DNA of 64,000 nucleotides from an uncultured bacterium (GCA_964619725.1 CAZUFC010000026.1:9729-73728), one strand, 5' to 3'. Positions 7,033-28,427 are shown, numbered from the stretch's first letter. The notes: generated by a model not told the origin, from the sequence alone. Numbers and translations are program-made.

Positions 7033-7084
7033 TGAGGAAAAGGGGACGGAAATTTTCAATTTTACAGGTTGAGGAAAGAGTATA

Positions 7085-9067
7085 ATGAGAATCGCCAAAG
7101 ACTATTTGGGAGTTGAATTCACGGAAAAAGGCATTCAGATCGCTTGCATATCCAAAGGGATCAGTCAGGTGCGAATGAAGGCTTCTCGTTTTATACCGCT
7201 TAAGGCCAGGGGCTCTTTTTATGAAGAGAGCGAATCCGCTATTGCGGCTGAAATCAGAAGTTTTATGATCGACAATGATATTGAGCCGACTGAGATTCAT
7301 ATTGGACTGCCGAGAAAAAGGGTTTTGTTTCAGGAGGTGGAAGTTCCGGTCGTCAGCGAAAGCGAAATACGGCAGATTATGACCTATGAATTGGAGAAAC
7401 ATATTCCCTTGAGCATCGATTCTGTTTATTTCGATGTCGTCAGTTTCGGAGAAACGACGGGAACAATGCTCCGGGTGCTTCTGATCGCAGTGCAGAAAAG
7501 AGTGCTTGACAGGTTTTTAAGAGTATTCGAAGAAGCCGAATTGACGGTGCATTCCGTCGACGTCTCCTCGGTCGCCGCAGTCAATTCCTACCTGGCTGCT
7601 GCAGGAGCCAAATCGGCAGAAGTGAAATGCTTCGTCAACATCAAATCAACCGATATCGTCTTAACCCTCTTTCAGGGTAACAAAATCTTGTTTTCCCGCT
7701 CTTTTCCCGTTCCCAGAAGAACATCTTCACCCGCCGCATTGGACGATAAAAGCGTCGATGCCGAACATCGAAGGGAAATTATACATCAAATCGTGCGTGA
7801 ATTGGACGTCGTTTCAGAAAACCTCCGGCTTAAATCGGAAAACAATCCCATCTCTGAAATTATCCTTTGCGGGATCGGGATTAAAGGCCCCCAATGGGCC
7901 GGCGAAATGCTTGAATTCTCGCGTATTCCCGCTTCATTCCACAACCCACTCGAAAACATTAAATCCGATGTGGACCTGTTTGAAAGCTTCAAACTGGTTT
8001 CCGCCTTCGGTCTCGCCCAGAAGAGCCTCATGCGCGACTTTATTCCCGTTAATCTGATACCTCCTGAAAGAAGACCGAAAGTTAAAGACCAGGGGCTCGT
8101 CATTACCGGCGCTCTGCTCGGAATAATTACTGCCCTGTTCACCTTTCTTATTGTCGTATGGTTCTACAGACTCAATATAGACATCAGAGAAGTCCAGTAC
8201 CGCAATGATAAAATAAAAGGCGACGTCACCGAAATCTTGAGAATTACCGAAGAATACAAGAGTATGAAAGAACAGATGGACGTCTTTAAGAAAATGGAAT
8301 TTGAAACTCCCAAAAGATTGGAAGTACTGGGCGAACTCACCAGAATTCTGCCCGTCAGCGAGGAGGATGAAACCAAACGAGTGTGGCTCACCGCATTGAA
8401 CATCGATACTGATGAAGTTGTGTTGAGAGGCGAATCCGAATCGCCGGAGGGACTGATTAAAATTCTTGAAGATTCGGACCTTTTTGAACAGGTGCAATTC
8501 GACAGCCCCATTTCCCGGAATAAATTTGCGATTAAAGTCGTCGTATCACAGAAAATTATGAAGGAAGAAGAGCTGCCGGAAGAATTCTTCCAGTCTGAAG
8601 AAGAGGCTCAACAAAAACAGCAATCAACCGCTCAAGAAGACGTTTCTCCTCCCACTCCTACTCCTGTCGCTGAAGAACTGCCTGATGAAAGAGAAGAATT
8701 GCCCAGAAACAGGGGACCGGCCTACAAGCTTCCCACAAAACCTCCTCAATTGCCGGAAGAAGAGTTTGAAGAGGAACCGATGGATGAAGAAATGCTGCCG
8801 GATGAACAGTTCGACGAAGAGTTGCCGGATGAGCAGCCGATGGAAATGAATGAGGAAATGGAGGCTTTTGTTGATGATTACTTATCGGAAGAGGAGGATA
8901 TGGAGGCGGCTAAACAAAAACTGTTTGACATTTTACAGGGAGACCAAGATAATCAGTTTTTCGACGGCGATTTGCCGCCGGAAGCCGAAGATTTTATCGA
9001 ATTCCTTCAGAATCAGGCTGAGGAAGAGGACATTCCTTTTGAAGAAAATATGGACGAAGGATATTGA
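7085..9067 (+). CDS. GspL/PilM-PilN-like assembly protein with an acidic C-terminal tail
   Basis: Actin-like PilM-type N-domain, VNLIP motif, one TM segment, PilN-like periplasmic domain (VWLT.L...LRGES), then an E/D/P-rich tail. Confidence 0.8.
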   Translation: MRIAKDYLGVEFTEKGIQIACISKGISQVRMKASRFIPLKARGSFYEESESAIAAEIRSFMIDNDIEPTEIHIGLPRKRVLFQEVEVPVVSESEIRQIMTYELEKHIPLSIDSVYFDVVSFGETTGTMLRVLLIAVQKRVLDRFLRVFEEAELTVHSVDVSSVAAVNSYLAAAGAKSAEVKCFVNIKSTDIVLTLFQGNKILFSRSFPVPRRTSSPAALDDKSVDAEHRREIIHQIVRELDVVSENLRLKSENNPISEIILCGIGIKGPQWAGEMLEFSRIPASFHNPLENIKSDVDLFESFKLVSAFGLAQKSLMRDFIPVNLIPPERRPKVKDQGLVITGALLGIITALFTFLIVVWFYRLNIDIREVQYRNDKIKGDVTEILRITEEYKSMKEQMDVFKKMEFETPKRLEVLGELTRILPVSEEDETKRVWLTALNIDTDEVVLRGESESPEGLIKILEDSDLFEQVQFDSPISRNKFAIKVVVSQKIMKEEELPEEFFQSEEEAQQKQQSTAQEDVSPPTPTPVAEELPDEREELPRNRGPAYKLPTKPPQLPEEEFEEEPMDEEMLPDEQFDEELPDEQPMEMNEEMEAFVDDYLSEEEDMEAAKQKLFDILQGDQDNQFFDGDLPPEAEDFIEFLQNQAEEEDIPFEENMDEGY

Positions 9068-9128
9068 GAATAAAGAAGCGCTTTGTGGGCAGAAGCTGTA
9101 AAAAAAGCGGAAAGGTTTTACAGGTCCG

Positions 9129-9731
9129 ATGTTTGAGAATATAAGAAAAAGGTTTGCTCAGTTTTCAATCAGGGAAAGAAGAATCATTATCGCCGGGATC
9201 GTCATTATCGTTGGATATTTAGCCTATGTCGCCGTTTTTGAACCGCTTTACCGGATGTACCAGCTTGATAAGGATAAGTTGGACCAGGAAATGCGGTTAT
9301 TTGAAAAAAACCTGACCATTCTCAGAAAAAGAGAACAATCCCAGTATAAATTGCGACAGGTTGAACGGATGCGGCGAATGGTGGAATCAGGATTGCTCTC
9401 CGGCGAAAGCGCTGAACTGGCTTCGGCCAATCTTCAGGCCATCATCAAAAATTACGCCAGAGAAATCGGCATCGATATAGATCGCGTCAGTCCCAGTCCC
9501 CCCAAGGTCAGAAACGGGTATAAGGAAATCCGTATCAAATTGCCCTTCAGATGCGATGTTGAAAAATTGAAGAATTTCCTTTTTATGATTGAAAATTCCG
9601 AACGTTTTCTGTTCGTGCCGACATTAGACGTCAGCGTTCCAAATCCGCGAAATCCGAAAACGCTTCGCGTCAACCTGGAAGTCGCCGGTTTCATCCAGCA
9701 GGAAGAGGAAGAAACCGCGAGCGACACCTAG
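9129..9731 (+). CDS. gspM: GspM/PilO-like protein
   Basis: S.RER before a TM segment, a coiled coil, L..FLFMIEN..RFLFV..L; lies between gspL and gspD. Confidence 0.8.
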   Translation: MFENIRKRFAQFSIRERRIIIAGIVIIVGYLAYVAVFEPLYRMYQLDKDKLDQEMRLFEKNLTILRKREQSQYKLRQVERMRRMVESGLLSGESAELASANLQAIIKNYAREIGIDIDRVSPSPPKVRNGYKEIRIKLPFRCDVEKLKNFLFMIENSERFLFVPTLDVSVPNPRNPKTLRVNLEVAGFIQQEEEETASDT

Positions 9732-9898
9732 AAAAAATAATCTACAAAATGAATACGAAAAGAAAGAACGAGACCAAACGCAAACAAATCAGTCAATGGA
9801 AAAAAAGATTTTGCGATGTTGATCTCCACAATTATAAAATAATTAAAACTTTGAAACTCCTCGAAAACATTATTCCAGGCAGTTAGAGGGAGGCTTTA

Positions 9899-12337
9899 AT
9901 GGTGCGCAGAAAAGAACTCCTTGTTTTTGTGTTGTTGATTGCGATTTTACTATCAGGATGTGCAGTGTTGAGAAAGACATCCGAACCGGAGATGCCGGAT
10001 CAAACCGGGAGTGAGATGGAAACGACTCCAGAAACGGAGCAGGAAACGGGAGAGCTGGGGGCTGAAGCAGAGGCTGAAGCAGTTGGCGAAGAAGCGGCGG
10101 AAGAAGGGGCCGCGGCCGAAGAAACTGAATTTGAAACGATTGGTACGGAAGGTGAGGCGGCGGCAGCAGATGAGGAGTTGGGAGAGGAACCGGATCAGCA
10201 GACTTTGGATGAAAAAACCGCCAGAGAATTGGAAGAGCTTTTTCGTGAATTGACGAAAGAGGACGAGATGATGGAGGAAGCGGAAGAAGAGGGTGAGGAA
10301 GCTGAAGAAATGGCCGGAGAAGATGCTGCGTCGGATGAGGACGCGGATGAGACGCCGGCTGCGGCTGGTGTCGCTGCCGGGACGGAAACCGTTGCTGCTG
10401 CTGACGCTGAGGCTGAAGAGGAGGAAGACAAGGGTATCATCATCAATTTTGAGAATGCCACGGTTCTTGAGGTATTAAAGGCAATCTCCGACATTATCGG
10501 AATAGATTATATTCTGGCGCCGGGAGTCGCAGGCGGTGAGGTGACGATCAAGTCCGCCAAGCCGATCAAGAAGGTAGACCTGTTTTATGTATTGCAATCC
10601 ATTCTGGAGTTGAACAACCTGGTCGCCATAGATGTTGGACCGTATTATAAAATCGTTCCTTCGCCCGAAGGCAAGCATCGCCCCATAAGGACGCAAATAG
10701 GAAAAATAGCCTCCAAAATAACGCCGACAGATGAAATGATCACGCAGATTATACCCCTGGACTATATAACGCCTGATGAGATCATCAACACTCTGCGCCC
10801 TTTAATAGCTGACGATGCGGTGTTGATTTCGCATCCGGGAACCAATCTGTTGATTATGACGGGATTGGCATCCAATATACAGAGAATTTTGAAGCTTGTT
10901 CAAATGCTCGATGTCGAAACCGCAGTTCTGGAACTGGAGATTTTCCAGATACAATATGCTGACGTCAATGATATCGTCACTATCCTGGAAAGGATATTCG
11001 AAAGCCAGAGAACAGGTACGGCATCGCTGGCGCGGGCGCCCAGAGGACGGGCTACGAGGAGGCGAACGACAGGCGGCGTGACGCGTGGCGGAGAAAAGGA
11101 TGTGCTGCTTATTCCCGACCTCAGGTCCAATTCCATCATCGTTTTCGCTCAGAAAAAAGACCTGGAATTCATAAGAGAAATCATCACAATGCTGGATGTC
11201 GACATATACGTCAGTCAGAAAACTTACATCTATTACATGGAGAACGCCAGGGCGACCGATATGGCGCAGTTGCTGGGTTCAGTCTTCAGCGGGACGGGCA
11301 GGGAACAGCGGACAGCGCCCCGGCCCAGAACGAGAACCTCTCGTACGCGTCAACCCGGTGGGACCGCATCCCTGGGCGCAATCGGCGAAGGCGCAGTGGA
11401 AGGTGAAGTGAACATCATTGCCGATGAAAGGACGAACGCACTGGTTATCGTCACTTCACCCGTGAATTATCCCAACATTTTAACAATAATAAAAGCGCTG
11501 GACATTATGCCGAAACAGGTGCTTATCGAAGTGCTGATCGTCGACGTCAAGCTTGAAGACAATACTCAGTTCGGCGTAGAATGGTTGCTGAAAAGCCAGG
11601 GACATCTTGATGTCGGCGGCGATACCTACTACTACGATGGAACGGCTCAGCAGAACCTGGGTATCGGCGACAATACGTTAGGTTTTACTTACAATGTGTT
11701 TGAAGCTTCACGATTTAAAAGCTTTTTAAGGGCTTACGCCAGGGATTCCAAGCTGGAAGTGCTTTCCAATCCCCATATCCTGGTCGCCAACAACATGGAA
11801 GCCGCCATTGATGTGGGTAATGAAGTGCCAATCGTTACCGCTGAGCAAACCTACGATACCGATTATACTGCCGACCAGCCCAGGAGAACGTTTAACCGCA
11901 CCATCCAATACAGAACGACAGGTATTCTTCTGCAGGTTGTCCCTCATATTAACGAAGAACGATACGTCAGCCTGGAACTCAGCCAGGAAGTCAGCAACAT
12001 ATCGAATATAACCGTGGCAGGCATTGATTCGCCGGTTATCGATAAAAGGACGGCCAACACTTCGGTCGTAGTCAAGGACGGTCAGACGCTGGTGATCGGC
12101 GGAATGATGGAAAGAAAGGTCAATCCTTCACGAGAAGGCATACCCTTCTTATCAAGAATCCCCATATTGGGCTCTATATTCGGAACGAGAAGCAAGACTG
12201 AAAGCACTTCAGAACTGCTGATCTTTCTGACGCCTCACGTCGTCGCATCGCCCGAAGAAGCGCGACTGCTTTCAGAGGAACTTCAGGATAAAACAAAGTC
12301 TAAATTGTTCGATGTGAGTCCCTTGTCGTATTATTAA
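9899..12337 (+). CDS. gspD: Type II secretion secretin GspD (lipoprotein)
   Basis: Lipobox LLSGC, N-domains (INFENA, D.RSNSIIV, ADERTNALVI), secretin core PKQVLIEV..., GQTLVIGG, IPFLSRIPILG.IF, ELLIFLTPHVV. Confidence 0.95.
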   Translation: MVRRKELLVFVLLIAILLSGCAVLRKTSEPEMPDQTGSEMETTPETEQETGELGAEAEAEAVGEEAAEEGAAAEETEFETIGTEGEAAAADEELGEEPDQQTLDEKTARELEELFRELTKEDEMMEEAEEEGEEAEEMAGEDAASDEDADETPAAAGVAAGTETVAAADAEAEEEEDKGIIINFENATVLEVLKAISDIIGIDYILAPGVAGGEVTIKSAKPIKKVDLFYVLQSILELNNLVAIDVGPYYKIVPSPEGKHRPIRTQIGKIASKITPTDEMITQIIPLDYITPDEIINTLRPLIADDAVLISHPGTNLLIMTGLASNIQRILKLVQMLDVETAVLELEIFQIQYADVNDIVTILERIFESQRTGTASLARAPRGRATRRRTTGGVTRGGEKDVLLIPDLRSNSIIVFAQKKDLEFIREIITMLDVDIYVSQKTYIYYMENARATDMAQLLGSVFSGTGREQRTAPRPRTRTSRTRQPGGTASLGAIGEGAVEGEVNIIADERTNALVIVTSPVNYPNILTIIKALDIMPKQVLIEVLIVDVKLEDNTQFGVEWLLKSQGHLDVGGDTYYYDGTAQQNLGIGDNTLGFTYNVFEASRFKSFLRAYARDSKLEVLSNPHILVANNMEAAIDVGNEVPIVTAEQTYDTDYTADQPRRTFNRTIQYRTTGILLQVVPHINEERYVSLELSQEVSNISNITVAGIDSPVIDKRTANTSVVVKDGQTLVIGGMMERKVNPSREGIPFLSRIPILGSIFGTRSKTESTSELLIFLTPHVVASPEEARLLSEELQDKTKSKLFDVSPLSYY

Positions 12338-17156: not shown

Positions 17157-17484
17157 TTTTCGCAAGCAAAAATTAATCGGTCCGCTTCGCGGACGCTCAT
17201 AAATAAAACTGTTCTAACGAAAATAAATGAACTGATCAAACTCAGATTAAGGGACTGATCAAAACAGGATAAAAGTTTTTGCCGGCAAAAAAATTTACTG
17301 AGTGAAATCCCCCCTATAGGGTCCGTTGATTTAATCGAAAATGAAAGCGCTTCAAAATCATTAGGCATCATCTCTCATAATATTTTCTTATTCCCATGGT
17401 TCGAATCGAATTTCGATTAAATCAAAGCTCGTCTAACGGATACAGCGGGGGCTTTATAAAGTCAAAGTTTTTTCTGACCTTTCA

Positions 17485-17693
17485 GCTTGTTTTTGTCCAT
17501 AAACGGCGAATTTTACCTAATACTGCGTCAGGCTACGGATTGGGTCAGTCAACGTACAAGCAATCCCCCTACTTCGCAAATCCCTGCCTTCCTTGCCTTA
17601 AGAAAAATTCGCCCGTTCATGGATCAAAAACCCAAGTGGCTGTCCAGCATTAAATTTTGAATCAAGATTTGAGTTCGTGGGCAGACACTAGCT
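17485..17693 (+). repeat. 209-bp palindromic repeat, family B, copy 1
   Basis: Reverse-complement similarity to 30514-30722, with an internal inverted repeat. Confidence 0.8.
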
Positions 17694-17878: not shown

Positions 17879-17938
17879 AGTCCCTTCCGTCCCTTAGGTC
17901 CCTTTGTCCCTTTGTCCCTTTGTCCCTTTGTCCCTTCG
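17879..17938. repeat. Tandem GTCCCTTT repeat
   Basis: gtccctttgtccctttgtccctttgtccctttgtcccttc. Confidence 0.9.
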
Positions 17939-18084
17939 TTTCTATGACCTTTCCAAGGCCGAAAAACCAGGAACAAAAAATTTTTAAAAAAAGAAACAAA
18001 TTCAATAACTTAAAACAAACATGCTCAACAAAATACCATAATAATTCAATTCATTGCTTCAATTTGAAAAAACACAAAAAGTTA

Positions 18085-18238
18085 GGGACTGATCGAACCA
18101 GGGTTAACTTTTTTCAAAACTTTTGACAGGTTGTTACAGTAATAGGGGTCGGTATCGAAATCCAAATCGAAATCCAAACAAAATGAATGGATATTCGGAA
18201 GAATCACAACCTAAAAAGACGCATTTTTGATCAATGCC
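18085..18238 (+). repeat. MITE-like repeat, family A
   Basis: GGGACTGATCGAA ... AAAAGACGCATTTTTGATCAATGCC. Confidence 0.85.
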
Positions 18239-18307
18239 GAAAATTCCACTTTTAAAGTTCATCCTGGTAAATAAACAAACCCAATCCAAAGACCGATCAA
18301 AAAAACA

Positions 18308-18372: not shown

Positions 18373-21300
18373 GTGACTTCATTTTCCAGGATAAACGATA
18401 ACGAATCGCCCAAACGTATGCTGAACATATTCATATCATCCACGGCAGAAGACCTGGAGACTCACAGAACCAGGCTGATCAACGCAGTCCAGCGTTCCGG
18501 TCACCATCCCTCGTATATGGAAACATTCGGCGCAAGACCCGATCAGCCGGTAGAAGGATGCCGGAAATTAATAAAAAAGTCTGACGCCGTAATAGTCATC
18601 GTCGCCTATCGTTACGGTTACGTGCCGGACAGAGACGAAGGCGGCGACGACAAACATTCCATGACCTGGCTGGAGGTCAAAGCGGCTGAGGAATTCAACA
18701 AGCCGGTATTCGCTTTTCTGGTCGATGAAAAAGCGCCCTGGACGAAAATGCGGGAAGAAAATTTGTTGAATGAGGTCCTGGAAGATGTTGAAGCATCACA
18801 ACGAATTCTGAGTAACATGCGATCACTAAGGGAATTCAAAAAATATTTAGAAAAAAAATGCATGCGCGATAAATTCCGATCAGAAGACGACTTGGCCGAA
18901 AAAGCGATTTCAAGCCTGTCCCGATGGATTAATGAAGAATTCGGACTTCGGACGAGCATCCCCGCAAGCGACGCCGTATCCGAAACGGAAATCCTGGAAG
19001 GTTATCTGAACAAACTCCTCCCGGAAACAAGATGGATCGATATAAGAGGCATAAGCGCGGAGCGGGGATCATCAAAGGACATGTGGCGTTTCCCCATTGA
19101 GGAACTTTTCACGCCGTTGAAAACCACAGGCTTCGCTAATAAAGCCGGCGGGTTCAAACCCGACATGGAAAAACGCCGACCGGATGATATGCCGCTGAAA
19201 ACGGAGGAACAGGACCAGCGACCGGAACTGTCGGATTTTCTGAAAGATAACCGCAAGCTGCTCCTGATAGGCGCGCCGGGAGGCGGAAAAACCACCTTCC
19301 TGCGCCTTATATCATGTGTGCTCGCAAAGGACCTCCTGGGAGAAAAGCATGGTTTCACTCAACCGGGCCGCTCGGTTCACCTGGGATTACACCTGACCGA
19401 TGAACCGCCGGTCCCGGTCTTCATCAGGCTGGCTCTACTGGCATCTTACATGAATAAGGATGATGACGTCCCCTGCAACGATCACATATCCCGTATACTG
19501 AATCTTTTTCAAAAACTGTACGGCGAGCAAACCAGGGATATACTCGAAAAACGCCTGAACGAAGGGCGTTGCGCCCTTTTGCTAGATGGACTCGACGAAG
19601 TGGCCGACACCGACATGCGATGCCGAATCACAAATCTGGTGGATGAAATACTGCAGAAATGGGGAGAGAACCTGGTGATAGTCACTTCCAGACCGCACGG
19701 TTACAAGGAGGTCGAAGGATTAAAAGGCGTCGTAAAACTTGAAATAGACGAGTTTAACGAAAAGGACACGGCCGAATTCCTGAATAAGTGGGTCAACGTC
19801 ATCTACTCTGAGCAGGATATGGAATCGCGGAACAGTTACCATCAGGAGCTGGAAGCGGCCATAGGATCATCCCGCAACATAAGAAGAATGGCCCGGAACC
19901 CCGTCATGCTGACCTGCCTGTGCGTGGTTCACTGGAACGAACGAAAGTTGCCGGAGGGCAAGGCTGACCTGATGAGCGCGGTATTACGATGGCTGGTGGA
20001 CGTCAGGAAAGAACAGAGGAAAAACGAAGGTTACACCAACACCTTTGCCGAAGAATGTTTCAAGTCGCTGGCCCTGGGCATGACGAATCATCCCGGAGGC
20101 AAAAAAAGCGTGGTCGACATAGCCTGGGCAGCCGAACAATTAGCCAAACCCTTCCATACCGAACAGGGAATTGACGACCTGGAAACCGTCCGAAGAAAAG
20201 GAAGTCATATCCTGGAATCAGAAATGATCTTCAGCGGCATTATAGAACGGGTCGGCCTGGGACAGTTAAGATTCTGGCACCTGACTTTTCAGGAACATTA
20301 CGCAGCCAGGCGCATTTCTGAACTGAGCGACCTGGACGATGAAACAGGATGGTGGCCTCTGATTAAACCTCATATTTACGACCAGCAATGGTTCGAACTC
20401 CTGGACCATTTCGCGGGTTGCCTCTCCAGAAAAGGAAGGGAAAAACTCAACCTGCTCGTTGAAAGGTTTCTGAACGATTGCGATGACTCAGACCTGGCTT
20501 CAGTGGCTAAAACAGTCGGCATCCTGGGACGCCTGTTGCGAGTGCTCGAAGAATACGAATATACTCCGCCGCCGCAACTAGGCTGGGAAAAAGCACGCGA
20601 ACGGGTCATGGAAATATTTAAAGTGGAAGGCGCAAAAAAAGTGAAAATCAAGCAAAGAATCACCGCAGCAGAAGCCCTGGGACAAAGCGGAGACCCCAGG
20701 TTAGAATTGCGTGAAAGGAAAAAGAATTTTAGACCGATTCCAGGACTCGAAAAGATAAAATTGGGAATATATCCCGTCACCGTGGAAGAATACAAAGCCT
20801 TTGTCGAGGATGACGGTTACCGGAAACAGGATTTCTGGGGCGAATACTGGAGGATTCGTGAAAAAAATGAATGGAATGCGCCCGATAATTGGGAGCGACA
20901 GTTGGACAAACCGAACCGTCCCGTCGTCTATGTGTCATGGTACGAAGCCAAAGCATACTGCCGCTGGCGATCCAAAACAGAACGCAGGGAGTATCGCCTG
21001 CCTGCGGAAAAAGAGTGGGAAGCGGCTGCCGTTAATCCTGACGGACCCTATCCATGGGGTAAAGAAGAACCGAATAATGAATTGGCGAATTATTATTTTG
21101 CGGGACCGAGAGAAACGACGCCTGTCGGTGTTTACCCGGCGGGCGCCACGCCTGAAGGTCACCTGGATATGGCGGGGAATGTCTGGGAATGGTGCGAAGA
21201 TGACGTTACAAAAGAATACAAGGGCGATCGCCCTCTGCGGGCGCTGCGGGGCGGCTGCTTTTGGCTCGATGCTGTTTGCCTTCGCTCGACGGACCGTGAC

Positions 21301-21375
21301 TGGCTCGAGGCTGATTACCGGAGCGACGACCTCGGCTTTCGGTTGGTCGTCGCCGCGAGCACGGTTGATGTTTGA
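18373..21375 (+). CDS. DGR target protein 1: DUF4062 + NACHT NTPase + FGE-sulfatase-type C-type lectin (CLec) domain
   Basis: IFISST.EDL...MEtFGA...AYRYG.VP..S.TW.E (DUF4062); GAPGGGKTT, LLLDGLDEV, FWHLTFQEHYAA (NACHT); PVVYVSWYEA.AYC.W, YRLP.E.EWE.AA, DMAGNVWEW, RGG, GFRLV (FGE/CLec). The start may be ATG 18418. Confidence 0.92.
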   Translation: MTSFSRINDNESPKRMLNIFISSTAEDLETHRTRLINAVQRSGHHPSYMETFGARPDQPVEGCRKLIKKSDAVIVIVAYRYGYVPDRDEGGDDKHSMTWLEVKAAEEFNKPVFAFLVDEKAPWTKMREENLLNEVLEDVEASQRILSNMRSLREFKKYLEKKCMRDKFRSEDDLAEKAISSLSRWINEEFGLRTSIPASDAVSETEILEGYLNKLLPETRWIDIRGISAERGSSKDMWRFPIEELFTPLKTTGFANKAGGFKPDMEKRRPDDMPLKTEEQDQRPELSDFLKDNRKLLLIGAPGGGKTTFLRLISCVLAKDLLGEKHGFTQPGRSVHLGLHLTDEPPVPVFIRLALLASYMNKDDDVPCNDHISRILNLFQKLYGEQTRDILEKRLNEGRCALLLDGLDEVADTDMRCRITNLVDEILQKWGENLVIVTSRPHGYKEVEGLKGVVKLEIDEFNEKDTAEFLNKWVNVIYSEQDMESRNSYHQELEAAIGSSRNIRRMARNPVMLTCLCVVHWNERKLPEGKADLMSAVLRWLVDVRKEQRKNEGYTNTFAEECFKSLALGMTNHPGGKKSVVDIAWAAEQLAKPFHTEQGIDDLETVRRKGSHILESEMIFSGIIERVGLGQLRFWHLTFQEHYAARRISELSDLDDETGWWPLIKPHIYDQQWFELLDHFAGCLSRKGREKLNLLVERFLNDCDDSDLASVAKTVGILGRLLRVLEEYEYTPPPQLGWEKARERVMEIFKVEGAKKVKIKQRITAAEALGQSGDPRLELRERKKNFRPIPGLEKIKLGIYPVTVEEYKAFVEDDGYRKQDFWGEYWRIREKNEWNAPDNWERQLDKPNRPVVYVSWYEAKAYCRWRSKTERREYRLPAEKEWEAAAVNPDGPYPWGKEEPNNELANYYFAGPRETTPVGVYPAGATPEGHLDMAGNVWEWCEDDVTKEYKGDRPLRALRGGCFWLDAVCLRSTDRDWLEADYRSDDLGFRLVVAASTVDV
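21227..21363 (+). repeat. DGR variable region VR1
   Basis: 137-nt ungapped match to TR with 18 mismatches, all at TR adenines. Confidence 0.97.
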
Positions 21376-21407
21376 ATTATTGAATATTGATCTTTATTCT
21401 TGGGGTT

Positions 21408-21426
21408 CCAGGGGCGGAGCCCCTGG
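21408..21426 (+). promoter_or_regulatory. DGR target-recognition hairpin downstream of VR1
   Basis: CCAGGGGC-GGA-GCCCCTGG, 32 nt after the stop codon. Confidence 0.85.
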
Positions 21427-21514
21427 CGAACGCAAAAACGTAATTATGTCATTTTGTAAACCCCGCCATGCAACCAAAACGACAAAATGACAAACAAAAT
21501 GACAAGCGTGACAA

Positions 21515-22522
21515 TCATTGACGGATTGCCGCAAAACCGGTCAAACCGCGATAAGAAGACAACGAACGGTAAAAATCCTCCGGTCTTCCATGTCCGGCCA
21601 GATACCGGAGCCTTCTCCTCATCCTCACCAGCATTCGCCTGGATGGTCTTATGCCGGAACGTGAAACATGATATCCCAGATAAATGAAAGCGCCCGACGT
21701 CCGCCTGGGTTGAACAGAGGGATTCTTTATCCGCAGTCGCCTATTTTTCATCAACCAGTCTACGGCTGCTTCCTTCGCCTCGGCCAGGCGCCGGCGGGAA
21801 TCGGAAAAAAGAGCTGTATCGTCCATGTAACGTTGAACGTGAGGTATTTTCAGCTCCCGTTTAAGGAAGTGGTCGAAGCCCGACAGGTAATGATTTCCCC
21901 ACCATTGACTGGTTAAGTTGCCTATCGGCAATCCGCAATCGTAAGGCGGATACCCTGGCGGCAAATTCAGCTTTTCGGAAACGTCGCGCCTTCTGTAAAT
22001 CCCACGCCCGCTGTCAGCGATTAATCTCAGCAACCATAAAAAATCATCGTCTTTTATTTTTTTCCTCATTATCTGCATCAATATGTTAATATCAATGCTC
22101 AGAAAATAATGAGCGATATCCATCAAAAGAGCAAAACGATATCGCCTGACAGCGCCGAGAAAACGAATCACGGCCCTGTGCGATCCTCTGCCCGGAAGGC
22201 ATGCGTAAGTTGTATCGATCAATCCCCTGTCCATGAACGGTGCGATAACTCTGTGAACTGCATGATGAACGATTCTGTCACGTACCGAAGCGGCAGAAAT
22301 CAGTCTTATCTTAGGGTCATTAATGAAAAACAGATGGTATCCTCCGTGACTATAATTTTTCTGCTCCAAATCACGACTCAATTTAATAATTTCTCGATCC
22401 GCTTCGGCCTCGAATCGTCTGACCGAGGGCCGGTTCCGTTTCCCGCGACGAAATTGCCGCCAGGCACGCCAAAGATTCCTTATTTCTGCCGTTTTATGAA
22501 AGAGGTCGCCGGCTCTTTTCAT
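21515..22522 (-). CDS. DGR reverse transcriptase
   Basis: PK.R.I.A..VRDRIVHHA, YAC..GRG.H.A, DI..YF.SID, GLPIGNLTSQ (DGR-type SQ motif), RYMDD, YLGY. 335 aa, with no maturase or endonuclease domain. Confidence 0.96.
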   Translation of the reverse strand: MKRAGDLFHKTAEIRNLWRAWRQFRRGKRNRPSVRRFEAEADREIIKLSRDLEQKNYSHGGYHLFFINDPKIRLISAASVRDRIVHHAVHRVIAPFMDRGLIDTTYACLPGRGSHRAVIRFLGAVRRYRFALLMDIAHYFLSIDINILMQIMRKKIKDDDFLWLLRLIADSGRGIYRRRDVSEKLNLPPGYPPYDCGLPIGNLTSQWWGNHYLSGFDHFLKRELKIPHVQRYMDDTALFSDSRRRLAEAKEAAVDWLMKNRRLRIKNPSVQPRRTSGAFIYLGYHVSRSGIRPSRRMLVRMRRRLRYLAGHGRPEDFYRSLSSYRGLTGFAAIRQ

Positions 22523-22709
22523 TTTCTGCCCCTATGCGGTTTTGTTTCTGGAATCCTTATCCCTGTATGAACATTGGACGGCTTTACAGAAACGGAAAGC
22601 CCGGCCGGACGTTCGGCGCTTGCCTACCAGAACGGCCGGGCGAAGGTTAATTCGGCATGCCGCAGCACGCCCGGATTCCTCCTGCACGGTGATCATCATC
22701 TTTCGTCAG
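22523..22709 (-). ncRNA. DGR spacer (3' part of the TR-containing RNA)
   Basis: Non-coding gap between TR and RT, with stem GCCCGGCCG(22599-22607)/CGGCCGGGC(22633-22641). The role is inferred from its position. Confidence 0.6.
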
Positions 22710-22846
22710 CGTGTTCGCGGCGACGACCAACCGAAAGCCGATGTTGTCGTTCCGGTTATCAGCCTCGTTCCTGTTACGGTTCGTTGAGCGAAGGTTATCA
22801 GCATCGTTCCAATAGCTGCCGCCCCGCAGCGCCCGCAGAGGGCGAT
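22710..22846 (-). repeat. DGR template repeat (TR)
   Basis: Lies between avd and RT, has 31 adenines and nine in-frame AAC codons, and matches both VRs at every non-A position. Confidence 0.97.
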
Positions 22847-22873
22847 ACTTTTCAGAGAAACCCTCGGTCATCA

Positions 22874-23206
22874 TTATATCTCTTTCTGCTTTTTCAACCA
22901 ACCGCCGATTTGCCGTCCTATAAGGTCCGCCTGCTGCGAAAATTCCAGGTAACTCATCTCTGTAAGTAACCCAAGCTCGAATCCCAACGCCATATATGCC
23001 CTGAGCAGACGCAGATCGCAGTCGGCATCGGTCAGGCTCTCGAACCTGTTGCGGCCTTGTATCGCAAGCGTTATATCGTCAAGAAGATGAAAGCTTGCAT
23101 TTATCAGTCTATTTTTCAATAAAGTGTAGCGCGGCAATGATTCCAGTTCCTCAAGAAGTACTCCGCATAAGGCCATAACATCTCTGTACAAAGGCGATTC
23201 TTTCAT
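22874..23206 (-). CDS. avd: DGR accessory variability determinant (bAvd-like four-helix bundle)
   Basis: 110 aa, helical, L..AD.DL..LR.Y......LG.L...Y......IGRQIGGW; directly upstream of TR. Confidence 0.9.
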   Translation of the reverse strand: MKESPLYRDVMALCGVLLEELESLPRYTLLKNRLINASFHLLDDITLAIQGRNRFESLTDADCDLRLLRAYMALGFELGLLTEMSYLEFSQQADLIGRQIGGWLKKQKEI

Positions 23207-23210
23207 CAGA

Positions 23211-23837
23211 CTAATAACCCGTCGGATCGCGGCGGCTGCCGAATCCTTGAAAACGCTTCCTGTACGATCTCTTTTCAGTACTCCTCACCAGCGATGATAA
23301 AAAAGGGATGTAATCCTGCTCTATCCTGTCCGCAAATTCAATACGCATCGATTCATCCGCTCCGTTTTTTATCAGAAGTTGAATGACCGCAGAGGCCGCC
23401 GCTTTCCGGGCTTCATTATAATGCAGCGACTTGTTGTTCGGTTGATACTCGTGACACCCCCGGCAAAGCGCCGTTAGAGAATCCTCAAGAAGACGGCTCG
23501 CCGGATGCTCCTCTCCCAGACGCAAACTGGTCTCTTTGTATATGATTATCCCCGACTTGTAAGCCCGCAGATCACGAACTGAATAATACCTGCCCTTTTT
23601 CACTTTGCCCACGGAACGGCCCACAGGGGAAATCGCCTCATCCGCCGCATCCTGCAGATTCTTCAGTCGCATGGCCGCCGCTGTCCTCTGCGCATTACTC
23701 AAAGGCAGAACTTCAGAATCGATGACCCAGCGGCCGCCCTTTTTTCGTGCCGGCAATTCATTCTTCTTAATGGCGTAACGCAACTGCCTCACGCTTTTAC
23801 CCAATAAGTCAGCAGCCTCTGATAAGGACAGTTCCAT
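23211..23837 (-). CDS. Excisionase-like HTH protein with a helical (probable four-helix-bundle) C-domain; candidate DGR accessory gene
   Basis: LSLSEAADLLGKSVRQLRYAIKKNELPARKKGGRWVI resembles HTH_17. ATG 23837 is preceded by AAGGGG. The gene ends 4 nt before avd. Confidence 0.75.
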   Translation of the reverse strand: MELSLSEAADLLGKSVRQLRYAIKKNELPARKKGGRWVIDSEVLPLSNAQRTAAAMRLKNLQDAADEAISPVGRSVGKVKKGRYYSVRDLRAYKSGIIIYKETSLRLGEEHPASRLLEDSLTALCRGCHEYQPNNKSLHYNEARKAAASAVIQLLIKNGADESMRIEFADRIEQDYIPFLSSLVRSTEKRSYRKRFQGFGSRRDPTGY

Positions 23838-23978
23838 AAGTTCCCCTTTTGTCAAGATTGTTTCAATATCGGCAGTTTGTCAATGCTGTCTTTAACAAAA
23901 CTGCTGTAATTCTTACATATTGTCAGTAATTTGTCAAGTTTAAACGGTGAAAATGACGAAATTTCGAATTTGTCGCGG

Positions 23979-23997
23979 CCAGGGGCTTCGCCCCTGG
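23979..23997 (-). promoter_or_regulatory. DGR target-recognition hairpin downstream of VR2
   Basis: CCAGGGGC-GAA-GCCCCTGG on the minus strand, 32 nt after the stop codon. Confidence 0.85.
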
Positions 23998-24029
23998 ACC
24001 CCTGAAAGACAAGAACAATTATCAATAAA

Positions 24030-27000
24030 TCAAACATCAACCGTGCTCGCGGCGACGACCAACCGAAAGCCGACGAGGTCGTCCCGGGGACCAGCCTCGC
24101 TCCAGAGACGGTGCGGAGAGCGAAGGTTACCAGCAACGTCCCAATAGCCGCCGCCCCGCAGCGCCCGCAGAGGGCGATTTGAACTCCCCCCATATTCTTC
24201 AGTAACATCATCTTCGCACCATTCCCAGACATTTCCCGCCATATCCAGATGACCGGCCGGCGCAGCCCCTTTCGGATAAATTCCCACTGGTGTGGGGCTG
24301 TCCACGTTACTGTAAAAATTCGCCAACTCAGCATCAGGCTCATCTTTCCCCCAGGGATACGGACCGTTCGAGTTCCGCGCCGCATCTTCCCATTCTTCCT
24401 CGTAGGGCAGCCGATAATTCCGTTTCCGCTCCAGTTTAGAACGCCATCGGCAATAGGCCACGGCTTCGTACCAGGAAACTTCAACCACGGGTCTATTGGG
24501 CGTTTCCAACTGGTCCTCCCAACTGTCGGGTTTAGTCCAGTCGTTATCTTCACGAATTTTCCAGTATTCGCCCCAGAATTCCTCTTTGGAATAACCGCCG
24601 TCATCGACGAAGTCTTTAAACTCTTCGACGGTTACGGGATAAATACCGAGCATAAGATGTTCGCGTCCTGGTACAAGCTCGAAGTTATTAACCCGCTTTT
24701 CCGGCGTCAGGCGAGGGTCTCCGCCCTGTCCCAGTCCTTCGGCCGCGGTAATTCTATCTTTGATTTTGACCTTTTCTGCGCCTTCAACAGTAAATATTTC
24801 CATAACCCTGTCGCGAGCCACTGTCCATCCGATCTGCGGCGGAGGCGTGTATCTGTAGACCTCCAGCACTCGAAGCAATCTTCCCAGGACGCCGACTGCC
24901 CTGGCCGTTCCCGCCAGTCCTTCTTGTTCGCCCTGTTCCAGAATACGTTTAACCAGTTTAGTCAGTCCATCCCTCCTTGTTTTTGCCAGGCACCCGGCGA
25001 AATGGTCCAGCACTTCGGCCCAGTTGCGATCATGCACATGAGGCGATATGATCCGCCACCACCCTTTTTCATCATCTTCATCCCTGCATTGAGCCAGCAT
25101 GACGGCAGCATAGTGTTCCTGAAACGTCAGGTGCTTGAACCGGACCTGTCCTTCATTGACTCTTTCCACTATGCCGCTGTCCATCATTTCACATTCTAAA
25201 AATCGAGTTCCTTTATCGTTCAATTCCCTATGGTCCGTAATGCCGAATTCGTTGTAAAACGGTCCTTTCAGAAATTCAGCCGCTTCCGAAAGATCGGCGA
25301 CGGCCTTTTTACCGGCTTTATGAGTCGTCATTTCAAATGCCAAGGTCTTGAAACACTGTTCAGCGAATTCATTGCCGTAACCCCTGGATTCACGGACATG
25401 CTTGTGGGAATTCAACAACCACTTGAGCACAGCGGCCAAAAGATCGGCTTTACCTTCCGGCAGTTTTCTTTCATTCCAGTGAACCACGCAGAGGCATGTG
25501 AGCATGACCGGGTTTTTCGCCAGTCTTCTTATCGTCGGCGATGAGATGATCGCTTCATTCAGCTCGAACCTGAGCTTACGGCATTCCCTTTGATCTTCGG
25601 GAAAAACCGCTGCCGCCCAGCGATCGATAAATTCGATTATTTCATCTTCGCCGAAATCGGAGATATGAGTGGTATTCATGGTTTCCAGTTCGGAGACTCC
25701 TTCGTATCCGAATGGACGTGAAGTGATGACGATCAGGCTCTTTTTCCATTTTTTGACGGAAGCTTCCACGATATTGATTACCTGCTCCCGTCTTTCCAGT
25801 TCAGGGACCTCATCCAGTCCGTCGAATAAAAGAGCGGCCCGTCCTTTGATCAAACGATTTTCGATAATATTACGCATGGGTTTCCCATGGATGGATTCCA
25901 GGTATTCAAAAAGGCAGCGAACAGGGTTGACGTCTCTTCCCTGGTCATTTCTGGAAATATGCTGGGAAAGCGCGGCCAGGGTAACGAATACAGGCAGCGG
26001 AGCGACTTTCGCCAGGTCAAGCCCCAGGTGGATATGCCGTTCCTTCGCTGTTTCATTTTTCATTTCCGTAAGCATATCTTCCGCGGTAACGCATGCGATG
26101 AACCGTAAAAACGTGGTTTTACCGCCGCCGGGAGCCCCTACCAGCATCAGTTTGCTGCAATCCTTCAGCAAATCTGAAAGTTTGACGTCGCGTTCTCTTT
26201 CCATACCGGCATGCTGCAATTCATCGTCACCGCCGGCGCTGCGTGATCGTCCTCTCCTGACCGCGCACTCCGGTCCCGCCGTTTTTAAAGGCGTAAACAG
26301 TTTTTTGATGGAAAAATGGCTGGCGGCATATCCTTCGCCCGCTCGCGAACCGATCCCCTGTATCTTGATGCGGGAAAATTGTGATACGACCGACTCCAGG
26401 TATTCCCTCAGCGCCTTCCTTTCAGAAACATGGTGCAGTTCTATATCCGGTCCGGGAACCGGTGGCGTTCGATCGCCCGGTCTGAGAACGTCGATTCTCT
26501 CTCGCAGATGGTTTGAAAGCGCTGTTACCACTTTTTTCGCCAGGTTATCCGGGTTCAGGAATGTCGTTAAAGTATGTTTGTCGTTAAGGTGTTTTTTGAA
26601 GTTTTTGAGTTCCTGTATCGCCTTGTAAATATCCTGAATTTCGTGAGGTTTCGCCTCTTCCATACGGTCCTGTTCTTTCGGAAGAAAACGCTTAAGAGAA
26701 TCGTCCGCAATATAAGCGAACACCGGAATGCCTTTTTTCTCAGCCGCTTCAACCTCGAACCAGGTAATGGACTTTGCTCCGTTCCCGCCTTTTTCCGCCG
26801 TAGGGACCCATCCATAACGCCATCCGACGATAACGACCAGCGCATCAGCGCTATCTGCCATGCCCAAAGATTCGTTCAAAGGTGTATCGGGACGCGCTCC
26901 GAAGCTTTCCATCCCGACTGATTGAATGTGAAGATCGTCGACAGCTTCCCGGACTGCATTGCGATAAGGCTTCAGGTCTTCATAAGTAGAGGATATAAAA

Positions 27001-27056
27001 ACGCGAAAAGCCCTGTGCCTGTCAAACGTGTTATCAGGATAACCATTTCGGTTCAT
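24030..27056 (-). CDS. DGR target protein 2: DUF4062 + NACHT NTPase + FGE-sulfatase-type CLec domain
   Basis: VFISSTYEDL..GMESFGA..GWRYGWVP; GAPGGGKTT; LLFDGLDEV; FKHLTFQEHYAA; DMAGNVWEW; identical C-terminus GFRLVVAASTVDV to target 1. Confidence 0.92.
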   Translation of the reverse strand: MNRNGYPDNTFDRHRAFRVFISSTYEDLKPYRNAVREAVDDLHIQSVGMESFGARPDTPLNESLGMADSADALVVIVGWRYGWVPTAEKGGNGAKSITWFEVEAAEKKGIPVFAYIADDSLKRFLPKEQDRMEEAKPHEIQDIYKAIQELKNFKKHLNDKHTLTTFLNPDNLAKKVVTALSNHLRERIDVLRPGDRTPPVPGPDIELHHVSERKALREYLESVVSQFSRIKIQGIGSRAGEGYAASHFSIKKLFTPLKTAGPECAVRRGRSRSAGGDDELQHAGMERERDVKLSDLLKDCSKLMLVGAPGGGKTTFLRFIACVTAEDMLTEMKNETAKERHIHLGLDLAKVAPLPVFVTLAALSQHISRNDQGRDVNPVRCLFEYLESIHGKPMRNIIENRLIKGRAALLFDGLDEVPELERREQVINIVEASVKKWKKSLIVITSRPFGYEGVSELETMNTTHISDFGEDEIIEFIDRWAAAVFPEDQRECRKLRFELNEAIISSPTIRRLAKNPVMLTCLCVVHWNERKLPEGKADLLAAVLKWLLNSHKHVRESRGYGNEFAEQCFKTLAFEMTTHKAGKKAVADLSEAAEFLKGPFYNEFGITDHRELNDKGTRFLECEMMDSGIVERVNEGQVRFKHLTFQEHYAAVMLAQCRDEDDEKGWWRIISPHVHDRNWAEVLDHFAGCLAKTRRDGLTKLVKRILEQGEQEGLAGTARAVGVLGRLLRVLEVYRYTPPPQIGWTVARDRVMEIFTVEGAEKVKIKDRITAAEGLGQGGDPRLTPEKRVNNFELVPGREHLMLGIYPVTVEEFKDFVDDGGYSKEEFWGEYWKIREDNDWTKPDSWEDQLETPNRPVVEVSWYEAVAYCRWRSKLERKRNYRLPYEEEWEDAARNSNGPYPWGKDEPDAELANFYSNVDSPTPVGIYPKGAAPAGHLDMAGNVWEWCEDDVTEEYGGSSNRPLRALRGGGYWDVAGNLRSPHRLWSEAGPRDDLVGFRLVVAASTVDV
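24042..24178 (-). repeat. DGR variable region VR2
   Basis: 137-nt ungapped match to TR with 19 mismatches, all at TR adenines. Confidence 0.97.
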
Positions 27057-27124: not shown

Positions 27125-27140
27125 TATCTTAAAGGGATTC

Positions 27141-27301
27141 GGGACTGATCACACACGGGTTACACTTTTTTCAAGTCTTGTGAAAGTTTGTTTGATTAAT
27201 CGGAGTCGGTATCAGGATCGAAATCTAAATCGAAATCGAAACAAAATTATGGGATATCCGGAATAATTGTAACCTCAAAAGACGCTTCTTTGATCAATGT
27301 C
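27141..27301 (+). repeat. MITE-like repeat, family A
   Basis: GGGACTGATCACA ... TTTGATCAATGTC. Confidence 0.85.
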
Positions 27302-27554
27302 GAAAAACGTCAGGCGAAAGCTTCAGGAAATTGAGCCACGGATTTTCACGGATCGAACACGGATGAAATGAATTTGAAATATGAAAAATGAACCGGACGG
27401 CGAAAACGCTGAACCAAAAGCTTACGCGTCTTCGCCGCCGCCGGTTATACGCATGACGATATGTTTTTGCCGTTTCCGCTGGACGTGCATGAAATCAAAT
27501 TGCTTTTTTCAGCATGTGATGCTAGATTAAAACTTAGGAATGGGTGGAGAAAAG

Positions 27555-28427
27555 ATGATGAAATTTGTTGATCCTAAAAATGATGTAGCGTTTAAAAAGA
27601 TTTTTGGAGATGAGAACAAAAAACAGATACTCATCAGTTTCCTCAACGCCATTCTGGACTATATCGGCACCGACAAGGAAATCGAAAGCATCGACATTTT
27701 GAATCCTTACCAGATTCCGAAGCTGCCGGGGCTTAAGGAGACTATTCTGGATATTCGGGCCGTAGACAGGCGCAAAGTCAGCTATATCATCGAAATGCAA
27801 GTTTTTCACACGCCTGCGTTTGAAAAACGAGTTCTTTACTATGCAGCCAAGTCCTACGCCATGCAGTTGGAAAAAGCCGAAGATTACCCCCGGCTGAACC
27901 AGGTGATCTTCATAGGTTTTCTGGATTTCATAGTATTTCGAGATGATCCTCGATACATGACGCGTCATCTGGTCCTGGAAGAAAAAACGAACGATCACTA
28001 TTTGAAGGACTTGGACTTTCGGTTTATAGAATTACCGAAGTTTACCCGGGAGCTGGATGAAATAAAAGACGTCAAAGAGAAGTGGATATATTTCGTGAAA
28101 AATGCGGCGGACCTCCAGATTATACCCGCCAATATGAAAGAGCCTCCTGCTTTGCGCGAAGCTTTCGAGTCAGCGGATCAGATGAGTTGGAGCAAGGAAG
28201 AATTGCACGCTTATGATGCGAAGGGCATTTACATCCAGGACGAACGGGGCAGAATTGAACTGGCGCTGAGGCAGGGTGAAGAGATCGGCATGGTTAAAGG
28301 CGTAAAGATCGGAGCAGAAAGGGAAAAATTACAAACAGCCCTGAAAATGAAAAGGGAAGGTCTGGATGTTTCCATTATCATGAAGGTTACCGGGCTTTCA
28401 CGTAATGATATTGCCGGATTGAAGTAA
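27555..28427 (+). CDS. Rpn family recombination-promoting nuclease (PD-(D/E)XK_2)
   Basis: DPKNDVAFKKIFG, ILDI, IIEMQV, RVLYY, FIELPKF, C-terminal ALKMK.EGL....I.KVTGLS. GGAG precedes ATG 27555. Confidence 0.92.
   Translation: MMKFVDPKNDVAFKKIFGDENKKQILISFLNAILDYIGTDKEIESIDILNPYQIPKLPGLKETILDIRAVDRRKVSYIIEMQVFHTPAFEKRVLYYAAKSYAMQLEKAEDYPRLNQVIFIGFLDFIVFRDDPRYMTRHLVLEEKTNDHYLKDLDFRFIELPKFTRELDEIKDVKEKWIYFVKNAADLQIIPANMKEPPALREAFESADQMSWSKEELHAYDAKGIYIQDERGRIELALRQGEEIGMVKGVKIGAEREKLQTALKMKREGLDVSIIMKVTGLSRNDIAGLK

Follow-up and report, generated by a model that had tools for sequence, protein, structure and literature searches.

How can a bacterium rewrite two genes that lie on opposite strands from a single template, and what would it gain by doing so? 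The question is raised by a locus of about 8.7 kb in a 64,000-nucleotide stretch of DNA from an uncultured bacterium (GCA_964619725.1, CAZUFC010000026.1:9729-73728), the whole of which is referred to below as the window. The locus is a complete chromosomal two-target diversity-generating retroelement (DGR). Every open reading frame (ORF) in it is intact, and very probably it diversifies, by retrohoming, the two genes that flank it (T1 and T2), which encode putative NLR-like sensors, at the predicted ligand-binding tips of their products. The host is represented by a metagenome-assembled genome of 344 contigs and 9.17 Mb (90.9% complete, 6.5% contaminated), the window being C26:9729-73728 in its contig numbering.

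The template repeat and the mutation pattern

The reading is carried by the relation between a template repeat (TR) and two variable repeats (VR1 and VR2), one in each target gene. The original prediction had placed TR in a minus-strand cassette with avd and a reverse transcriptase (RT) gene, and had aligned it to both VRs over 137 nt without gaps, with 18 mismatches in VR1 and 19 in VR2. Coordinates, alignment and counts came out the same when the repeats were realigned and counted by script (137 ungapped columns). It had also claimed that all mismatches fall at TR adenines, and this too is correct: adenines of TR are the site of 37/37 mismatches over the two VRs, the computed alignment holds no mismatch at any other base, and the 106 non-adenine positions of TR are all identical in both VRs (106/106). 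The replacements are distributed among C, G and T, and the crude chance of an adenine-only pattern, (31/137)^37, is ~1e-24. Read in frame, TR contains nine AAC codons, and 26 of the 27 adenines in its mutagenised tract stand at codon position 1 or 2. A stop codon cannot be reached by substitution of any TR adenine, the 19 variable codons allow ~2e15 possible protein forms per target, and synonymous changes make up 1/15 changed codons in VR1 and 1/16 in VR2.

VR1 matches TR only as the reverse complement; no alignment is obtained in the same orientation, and the pair is listed by the repeat finder as an inverted repeat (I3, 137 nt, 87%). The predicted position of VR1 therefore stands, while its implied orientation does not, as VR1 is on the plus strand. 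Because it lies inside a plus-strand gene, the two targets are inverted and flank the cassette. The mismatches at position 133 are of another kind from the rest. TR has A and both VRs have G at this position, and the same A(TR)/G(VR) difference occurs in 26/26 VRs of the 14 related loci printed, so it is not a product of random mutagenesis; it is also found in VR-A of a second DGR of this genome. The original prediction took all mismatches as mutagenesis, which holds for the 35 (17 + 18) in the tract, at TR positions 30-105, but not for the one in each VR that is a fixed boundary difference. Since position 133 is fixed, the homed tract must end between positions 105 and 133. TR and the VRs are identical over 27 nt after the last variable position.

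That both VRs were rewritten from TR after T1 and T2 had diverged is well supported. The two proteins are 50% identical. In 100-nt windows the DNA identity of their genes stays at 0.37-0.65 for the greater part of the gene and reaches 0.56-0.84 within the final 700 nt, yet both VRs agree with TR at every non-adenine position, which requires copying from TR after the paralogues had split.

The cassette core

An RT of the DGR type is marked by motif 4, [LIV]GxxxSQ, together with YxDD. The RT of this locus has IGNLTSQ and YMDD and matches phrog_1423 at 1.6e-88. The original prediction had named an affinity with group II introns or retrons as one finding that would speak against a DGR; the RT falls far below both NCBIfam cut-offs (85 bits against 300 for the group II intron model, 25 against 235 for the retron model). 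A search with the pattern IGNLTSQW found 539 confirmed RT relatives. Relatives of the RT adjoin avd, TR/VR pairs and lectin targets. The Avd protein passes the Pfam bAvd cut-off (46.9 bits against 40) and matches phrog_3206, annotated in PHROG as 'Avd protein of DGR'. The claim of a complete DGR is thus borne out by the RT motifs, by Avd, by the codon design of TR and by VRs that end lectin folds. The features of the locus are collected in Table 1.

Table 1. Features of the two-target DGR locus, in order along the window (HTH, helix-turn-helix; pI, isoelectric point).
Feature	Position	Strand	Description
Target gene 1 (T1)	18373..21375	plus	1000 aa from GTG 18373; alternative start ATG 18418
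VR1	21227..21363	plus	Last 137 nt of the T1 coding region before the final 4 codons
Hairpin CCAGGGGC-GGA-GCCCCTGG	21408..21426	plus	44 nt past VR1; GC-rich
DGR reverse transcriptase	21515..22522	minus	335 aa; Pfam RVT_1; IGNLTSQ and YMDD
Structured spacer of the TR RNA	22599..22713	minus	19-locus alignment and RNAalifold
TR	22710..22846	minus	137 nt; 31 adenines, 27 in the mutagenised tract
avd accessory gene	22874..23206	minus	110 aa; acidic, pI 5.1; Pfam bAvd
HTH and four-helix-bundle gene	23211..23837	minus	208 aa from ATG 23837; ORF extends to TTG 23855
Hairpin CCAGGGGC-GAA-GCCCCTGG	23979..23997	minus	44 nt past VR2
Target gene 2 (T2)	24030..27056	minus	1008 aa; DUF4062-NACHT-lectin
VR2	24042..24178	minus	Direct repeat D1 with TR (repeat finder)

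The target proteins

T1 and T2 point toward the cassette from either side, T1 being convergent with RT and T2 lying upstream of the cassette on the RT strand. Their products have a tripartite NLR-like layout, with an N-terminal effector, a STAND NTPase and a C-terminal sensor, and the Walker A motif GAPGGGKTT is intact in T1 (aa 300-308) and T2. In T1 the domains are DUF4062/NIR (aa 19-104; Pfam 1.8e-18), NACHT (aa 296-474; 1.7e-10) and an FGE-sulfatase/C-type-lectin fold (aa 796-992; 4.5e-40). The FGE-sulfatase domain of T2 is matched at 2e-39, and DUF4062 (PF13271) scores 66.9 and 65.7 bits in the two targets. In the PDB, the T1 lectin region finds sequence matches in FGE/EgtB and in TvpA, a variable protein of Treponema (2y3c). 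The same three Pfam domains are present in 43 of the best 120 homologues listed, and other homologues listed have a Metallophos, TIR, SEFIR or SAVED-linked N-terminus instead of DUF4062. The antiphage NACHT models of NCBIfam reach only 16-18 bits.

DUF4062 is described as a TIR-like NADase effector of antiphage defence in three bioRxiv preprints of 2026, which place its catalytic glutamate at residues 87-108, beside an 'SYT' region (10.64898/2026.05.01.722283; 10.64898/2026.09.04.749371; 10.64898/2026.06.25.731849). The N-terminus of T1 matches the solved DUF4062 of KpSwz in the PDB (E 2.3e-5, residues 16-87), and an S-x-T-x-x-E motif is conserved across 50 homologues (S96 in 48/50, T98 in 47/50, E101 in 49/50), with all three residues kept in T2. 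By analogy with the published effectors, the targets would be NADases with a role in defence. They are likely to be intracellular, anticipatory sensors of invader molecules, predicted to trigger NAD+ depletion. DGR-linked STAND-lectin proteins have been proposed as hypermutating antigen sensors (Kaur et al., 2021, PMC8195603; Doré et al., 2024, PMC10907252).

Target-site hairpins and the spacer RNA

The signals expected at DGR target sites are present at the locus: a GC-rich 3' identity of the VRs, the boundary difference and a downstream hairpin. The last is a presumed target-site hairpin or cruciform with an 8-bp GC stem and a 3-nt loop, of the general form CCAGGGGC-N3-GCCCCTGG and here with a GRA loop. 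One copy follows each VR, that of T2 falling in the 174-nt gap between T2 and the longest ORF of the HTH gene (from TTG 23855), and no such hairpin follows TR. A loose version of the pattern occurs at only three places in the 9.17-Mb genome, each after the VR of a DGR, the third being after VR-A of the second DGR. Among 80 related loci from named genomes, fetched with the RT alignment, 16 have the motif. The HTH gene is present in 12 of these, and the other four are truncated or reduced close relatives without an HTH gene match.

The RNA downstream of TR appears to be structured. In a 19-locus alignment, RNAalifold of the 100 nt after TR gives 19 base pairs, of which 13 have compensatory changes. 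In stem P1 the 3' end of TR (22713-22706) pairs with 22692-22685, and in stem P2 positions 22641-22633 pair with 22607-22599, enclosing a small hairpin.

An additional gene upstream of avd

The minus-strand avd-TR-RT cassette of the original prediction is confirmed, except that a further cassette gene (23211-23837, or to 23855 from the earlier start) was missed, and the core order on the minus strand is HTH gene-avd-TR-RT. The gene sits between T2 and avd, ends 4 nt before avd and encodes a basic protein (pI 9.8) with a Pfam HTH_17 domain (9.9e-10). At E <= 0.01 the Pfam matches of 23211-23855 are HTH_17, MerR and HTH_8 only, and the MutS_I domain (PF01624) has no match there at that threshold. 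An exhaustive HMMER search recovered 522 cluster representatives of the family at E <= 1e-3 and 267 at E <= 1e-10; the members are mostly 180-210 aa and full length. An AlphaFold2 (AF2) model built from a 101-row alignment (pLDDT 91.9) has a winged HTH (residues 1-45), a long helix (48-76) and a four-helix bundle (91-199).

Foldseek with the model of this protein returned nothing at E <= 0.001. The best fold match in a second structure comparison was 2gsc (Z 14.5, root-mean-square deviation 2.0, 103 aa), which is described as a PF05635 representative homologous to Avd (PMC10053308), followed by plant pectin-methylesterase inhibitors (Z 12-12.7) and 2rld of the S23/IVS family (Z 12.6); bAvd chains gave Z 10.8-11.1, and all these values are in the range of generic bundles. 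By hhalign, the C-terminal bundle shows no detectable sequence relation to the Avd of the window (probability 0.4) or to 21 Avds (0.25). A tblastn comparison with plasmids gave no match, and the matches in the ESM Atlas are only to clusters named 'HTH domain protein' and 'hypothetical'. The predicted complex of the HTH protein with Avd scored 0.01 against a mark of 0.32, which is evidence in neither direction.

A hidden Markov model of the family matches 23/80 related loci. All 23 belong to the nearest relatives by RT: L042, L045 and 21 of the 26 loci from L013 to L038. The five misses within that range are L015, L017, L030 and L033, which have no sequence upstream of RT, and L036, without HTH gene and avd. 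In 22/23 loci the position of the gene is between the upstream target and avd, and in nearly all its stop codon touches or overlaps the start of avd. The remaining locus, L019 (JAKSDA010000629.1), differs in that the two lectin ORFs share the strand of RT and the HTH gene is downstream of RT. As a separate observation, L036 (CAYQDX010000223.1) has RT, TR, two VRs and the hairpin, with no avd or HTH match between its upstream target and TR. Across five whole genomes, 9/9 strong full-length copies of the HTH gene lie 0.6-1.4 kb upstream of the nine best RTs (>=299 bits), while a full-length copy adjoins 0/11 weaker RT matches, one partial RT among these abutting a 36-residue remnant. On the contig of one weaker copy, which is split (G042:C29), no RT is matched at E <= 1e-20.

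Presence of the gene goes together with the charge of Avd. In loci with the HTH gene the median pI of Avd is 6.1 (n=21; 16 below 7 and five at or above 8.6), while in loci without it all values lie at 9.1-10.6 (n=32), and for the HTH family itself the median is 9.9 (n=101). The contrast counts as one evolutionary event, not 21, because the HTH-bearing loci form one clade. An Avd that is mostly acidic or neutral beside the HTH gene and basic elsewhere suggests that the two proteins share a task. Direct reading of the hairpin by the HTH was considered and set aside: the recognition helix RQVRY is near-invariant where hairpins differ or were not found, and there is no covariation, so that idea is unsupported. 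No HTH-type gene beside this class of DGR was found in the open-access DGR literature searched, PDF supplements left aside (Doré et al., 2024, main text and eight supplementary files; Wu et al., 2018; Roux et al., 2021; PMC11661182; PMC10053308; PMC8934634). In the portions of that literature seen, the only mention of an HTH near a DGR concerns a gene at a different type of locus, DGR 8 of clade 5A.

Our tentative proposal, to which we give somewhat less than an even chance, is that the HTH-bundle protein is an accessory defining this lineage and took over the basic nucleic-acid-binding role of Avd, perhaps together with the hairpin, the boundary base and the spacer RNA.

Related loci and other DGRs of the genome

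In 19/23 HTH-bearing loci one lectin ORF lies upstream on the strand of RT and another downstream on the other strand, nearly all of these ORFs having NACHT, and most HTH-bearing loci show two A-biased VRs. The hosts of the related loci include Planctomycetota, Phycisphaeraceae, Myxococcota/Nannocystis, Magnetococcales, Acidobacteriota, Thermoanaerobaculia and Gemmatimonadota, as well as others. The four extras of the lineage (the HTH gene with an acidic Avd, the hairpin, the boundary A/G and the spacer stems) recur in related loci from several phyla, and no description of any of them was met with in the literature searched.

The genome itself has at least three DGR loci with TR/VR pairs, and DGR-type RT motifs at five places. 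The second two-target DGR (contig C9:100822-108800; L009 323-8301) has the same inverted layout and an RT that is 59% identical. Its order is target A (Metallophos-NACHT-lectin), HTH gene, avd, TR, RT and a convergent target B, which is a DUF4062-lectin protein without NACHT. The VRs of this element differ from TR mainly at adenines, VR-A having a 3-nt deletion and a few non-A differences. The third DGR, on contig C280, has its TR (364-491) downstream of RT and a VR at 2517-2644. Partial DGR-type RTs are present on C226 and C27. C155 has lectin and NACHT ORFs and the N-terminal half of an HTH-family gene beside a copy of a 155-nt repeat (described below), with no RT. Further STAND-lectin paralogues were seen on contigs C8, C324, C23 and C6.

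The locus was not found in any of 40 related genomes, which are at best of the same phylum. The genome is large (9.2 Mb) and belongs to a thinly sampled microbial-mat lineage, with only 14 genomes of the phylum available.

Proposed mechanism and alternative explanations

The order of biochemical steps would be that of the Bordetella phage BPP-1. The minus-strand operon HTH-avd-TR-RT would give an RNA holding TR and the structured spacer, which RT, with Avd, would copy into cDNA, placing random bases opposite template adenines. The cDNA would then replace the homologous 3' end, the VR, of each of the two inverted flanking paralogues. The GC-rich identical stretch and the hairpin downstream of each VR may mark the targets, and the fixed A(TR)/G(VR) at position 133 may mark the 3' edge and keep TR itself from being a target. 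Each target would join a DUF4062/NIR NADase effector to a NACHT oligomerisation switch and a C-type-lectin sensor.

Several observations tell against this account. The best NCBIfam match of the RT is the group II model, although far under its cut-off, and Avd reaches 47.5 bits with the NCBIfam equivalog DivGenRetAVD, under the cut-off of 80. The PDB alignment with KpSwz ends at residue 87, short of E101, whose equivalence to the published catalytic glutamate is suggested by position and motif. The sensor is a lectin fold, unlike the repeat sensors of characterised Avs or bNACHT proteins, and none of the DGR-diversified STAND-lectin proteins had yet been tested experimentally according to Doré et al., 2024 (PMC10907252). 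Among public runs, the locus occurs in four only (X1-X4), all from microbial mats and from one study and available as Logan contigs, and among the differences listed, these contigs carry the alleles of the window: all of VR1 is identical in X3 (record 19, 21191-21381), VR1 positions 1-104 are identical in X2 (record 11), and X4 (record 28) agrees over the variable part of VR2. No RNA run holding the locus was among the public sequencing runs found. Contig breaks at VR edges in X1 (records 3, 4 and 5) were looked at as possible variation and discarded, since they coincide with sequence shared by VR1, VR2 and TR and were taken as an assembly effect.

Taken together, the contigs bear on the recent or ongoing activity that the original prediction had put forward. 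Retrohoming into both targets after their divergence stands; activity at the present day has no such support, the same VR alleles being found in three other samples. It may then be asked whether the element is a fossil, which rewrote both VRs in the past and is now silent with its VR alleles fixed. The unchanged alleles in X2, X3 and X4 would fit, as would the decayed DGR pieces elsewhere in the genome (the partial RTs of C226 and C27 and, on C155, an HTH fragment accompanied by lectin ORFs in the absence of an RT). A silent element is unlikely, however, given that every ORF is intact, that there are zero non-A differences in 2 x 106 positions, and that the RT catalytic motifs, the spacer stems, both hairpins and the boundary position have all been kept; the four runs come from one study at a depth of about 3-8x and may sample one population, and Logan contigs cannot show minority variants. 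Still less can be said for ordinary gene conversion or a recent duplication of paralogues as the source of the three repeats. T1 and T2 are paralogues and their similarity rises toward the 3' end, but conversion cannot confine 37/37 differences to the adenines of one non-coding copy, it leaves the adjacent RT and avd unexplained, and the adenine pattern recurs in more than a dozen unrelated genomes, so that we regard its chance as negligible.

Other views concern the purpose of the diversified proteins and the role of the HTH gene. The targets might serve some other recognition than that of viruses, such as kin or self recognition or cell signalling in mats. No phage gene or known defence island is present among the window ORFs scanned, PADLOC makes no defence system call for the targets and gives them only a 15.7-bit match to mad8, and Doré et al., 2024 tie this DGR lineage to multicellular life styles (PMC10907252). 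We nevertheless consider a non-antiviral role improbable, as the characterised DUF4062 effectors are reported to act in abortive-infection defence through NAD+ depletion, and the exchange of N-termini among relatives (Metallophos, TIR, SEFIR, SAVED-linked) is typical of defence NLRs. A somewhat stronger case, though still one that we doubt, can be made for the HTH-bundle gene as merely a transcriptional regulator, or a leftover excisionase-like mobility gene, outside retrohoming. Its HTH_17/excisionase and MerR-type matches agree with this, one of the palindromic hairpins stands 124 nt upstream of its start in a possible operator place, and its recognition helix stays constant while the hairpin sequence differs. 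On the other hand, no integrase lies nearby, in nearly all related loci the HTH gene runs up to or into the start of avd, strong full-length copies in the five genomes are each closely followed by an RT of this subclade (9/9) while no full-length copy adjoins a weaker RT match (0/11), and Avd is acidic or neutral in 16/21 loci with the gene and basic in 32/32 without it, which suggests a joint task.

Comparison with known systems

The system is of a known kind, as published work already covers DGRs whose two targets are STAND-lectin proteins (Kaur et al., 2021; Doré et al., 2024). In DGRs of clade 5D it is common to find two targets, with STAND and lectin domains (Doré et al., 2024, PMC10907252). 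These DGRs share with the present locus a cellular setting, two targets, a central NACHT/STAND domain, a single C-terminal lectin fold with the VR, varying N-terminal effectors and several DGR loci per genome (at least three here). A possible place of the RT in this clade (Roux et al., 2021; Doré et al., 2024) is suggested by target architecture and by the host range of the relatives (Magnetococcales, Planctomycetota, Myxococcota). The main-text sections on these DGRs do not discuss an inverted arrangement, a hairpin or an acidic Avd. Kaur et al., 2021 (PMC8195603) linked effector-STAND-FGS proteins to RT and a 'four-helical domain accessory protein', and their systems share the architecture, the RT with its four-helical accessory and the presence of at least two copies per organism with different effectors. 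Their effectors are TIR, DRHyd, calcineurin, caspase, trypsin and kinases; DUF4062 and a second, HTH accessory go unmentioned in the parts of that paper drawn on here.

The DGR of phage BPP-1 (Guo et al., 2011, PMC3240598) has the same avd-TR-RT core, adenine mutagenesis, a VR ending a lectin fold, GC-rich 3' homology and a hairpin downstream of VR. BPP-1 is a phage whose target is a tail fibre, whereas the present element is cellular, with two NLR-like targets, predicted to be cytoplasmic, on opposite strands. The BPP-1 hairpin follows VR immediately and its stem sequence can vary, whereas here it stands 44 nt past VR (25-75 nt in relatives) and the stem is near-invariant across phyla. Also unlike BPP-1, Avd is acidic here and there is an extra HTH gene.

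Swarozyc, NIR-Avs2, Vulcan, Vesta and Evangelion share the N-terminal DUF4062 with its S-x-T...E motif, but their sensors are described as fixed (TPR, HEAT, auxiliary regions), whereas the sensor here is hypermutable. The term 'diversity-generating' is absent from the main texts of the three DUF4062 preprints, 'sulfatase' from two of them, 'FGE' from the third and 'lectin' from the one checked for it.

Among DGR accessory genes other than avd, HRDC, MSL and CH1 have been reported (Wu et al., 2018, PMC5758913). MSL resembles the HTH gene in position (TG-MSL-AVD-TR-RT in DGRs of Bacteroidetes), in size and in co-occurrence with avd. It is attributed to the MutS mismatch-recognition domain PF01624 (PMC10053308 and a Bacteroides preprint) and has a pI of 7.2, whereas the HTH gene product has HTH_17, a helical bundle and a pI of 9.8; the distinction is one of domains and description. 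CH1 is acidic and occurs without avd, unlike the HTH gene.

Surroundings of the locus

The original prediction held the element to be cellular and not part of a phage, and its neighbours agree. Phage structural genes are absent from the 15 neighbouring ORFs scanned, and the sole match in the 'head and packaging' class is a secretin that matches M13 protein IV. Upstream, at 226-12337, is what looks like a complete type II secretion operon (GspE, F, H, K, L/PilM-like, M and secretin), itself upstream of Ig-like and PMP-repeat proteins. Downstream are an Rpn-family PD-(D/E)XK transposase, a sulfatase and genes for sugar and peptide transport. The Rpn-family 'transposase' (27540-28427; TIGR01784, 3.3e-46) adjoins T2 and may bear on how the module moved. 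Scans of the window with Rfam at gathering thresholds and for tRNA genes found nothing.

Direct repeats D2-D4 (95-160 nt), upstream of both targets, were considered as shared promoters and rejected, being copies of a genome-wide repeat. This family, ~155 nt long with an internal ATCGAAATCCAA-like repeat, occurs at 18084-18243, 27140-27306 and, in part, 17250-17280, and the copies upstream of the two targets are in direct orientation despite the inversion of the genes. It gives 639 blastn hits in the genome, 332 of them >=100 nt, on 227/344 contigs. It has no Rfam match at gathering scores; a MITE, a REP-like element and a small-RNA family are all conceivable. Nearby, the segment 17384-17767 has a Logan contig depth of ~2000x in X1, against ~8x for the locus, and is therefore very high-copy in the mat metagenomes; it overlaps a small ORF (17396-17653) without a Pfam match. 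A short tandem repeat of GTCCCTTT-like units lies at ~17880-17940.

Implications

Work on how DGRs find their targets has mainly concerned a single phage element until now. The HTH gene with its acidic Avd, the hairpin, the boundary base and the spacer RNA offer handles on how cellular DGRs find their targets, and the two inverted targets form a natural control, in that homing works in either orientation. If the proposed role of the HTH protein is true, the lineage has a target recognition of its own, with which a single cassette rewrites two immune-sensor genes on opposite strands, and such a toolkit could be transferred to other hosts as a means of targeted mutagenesis. The locus is a compact, intact example and, through its lineage extras and its predicted NADase effector, a good candidate for experiments. 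A simple read-out exists, VR alleles against NAD+ loss, because DUF4062/NIR is reported by others to be a NADase. More broadly, STAND-lectin proteins diversified by DGRs are the nearest bacterial parallel to hypermutating antigen receptors.

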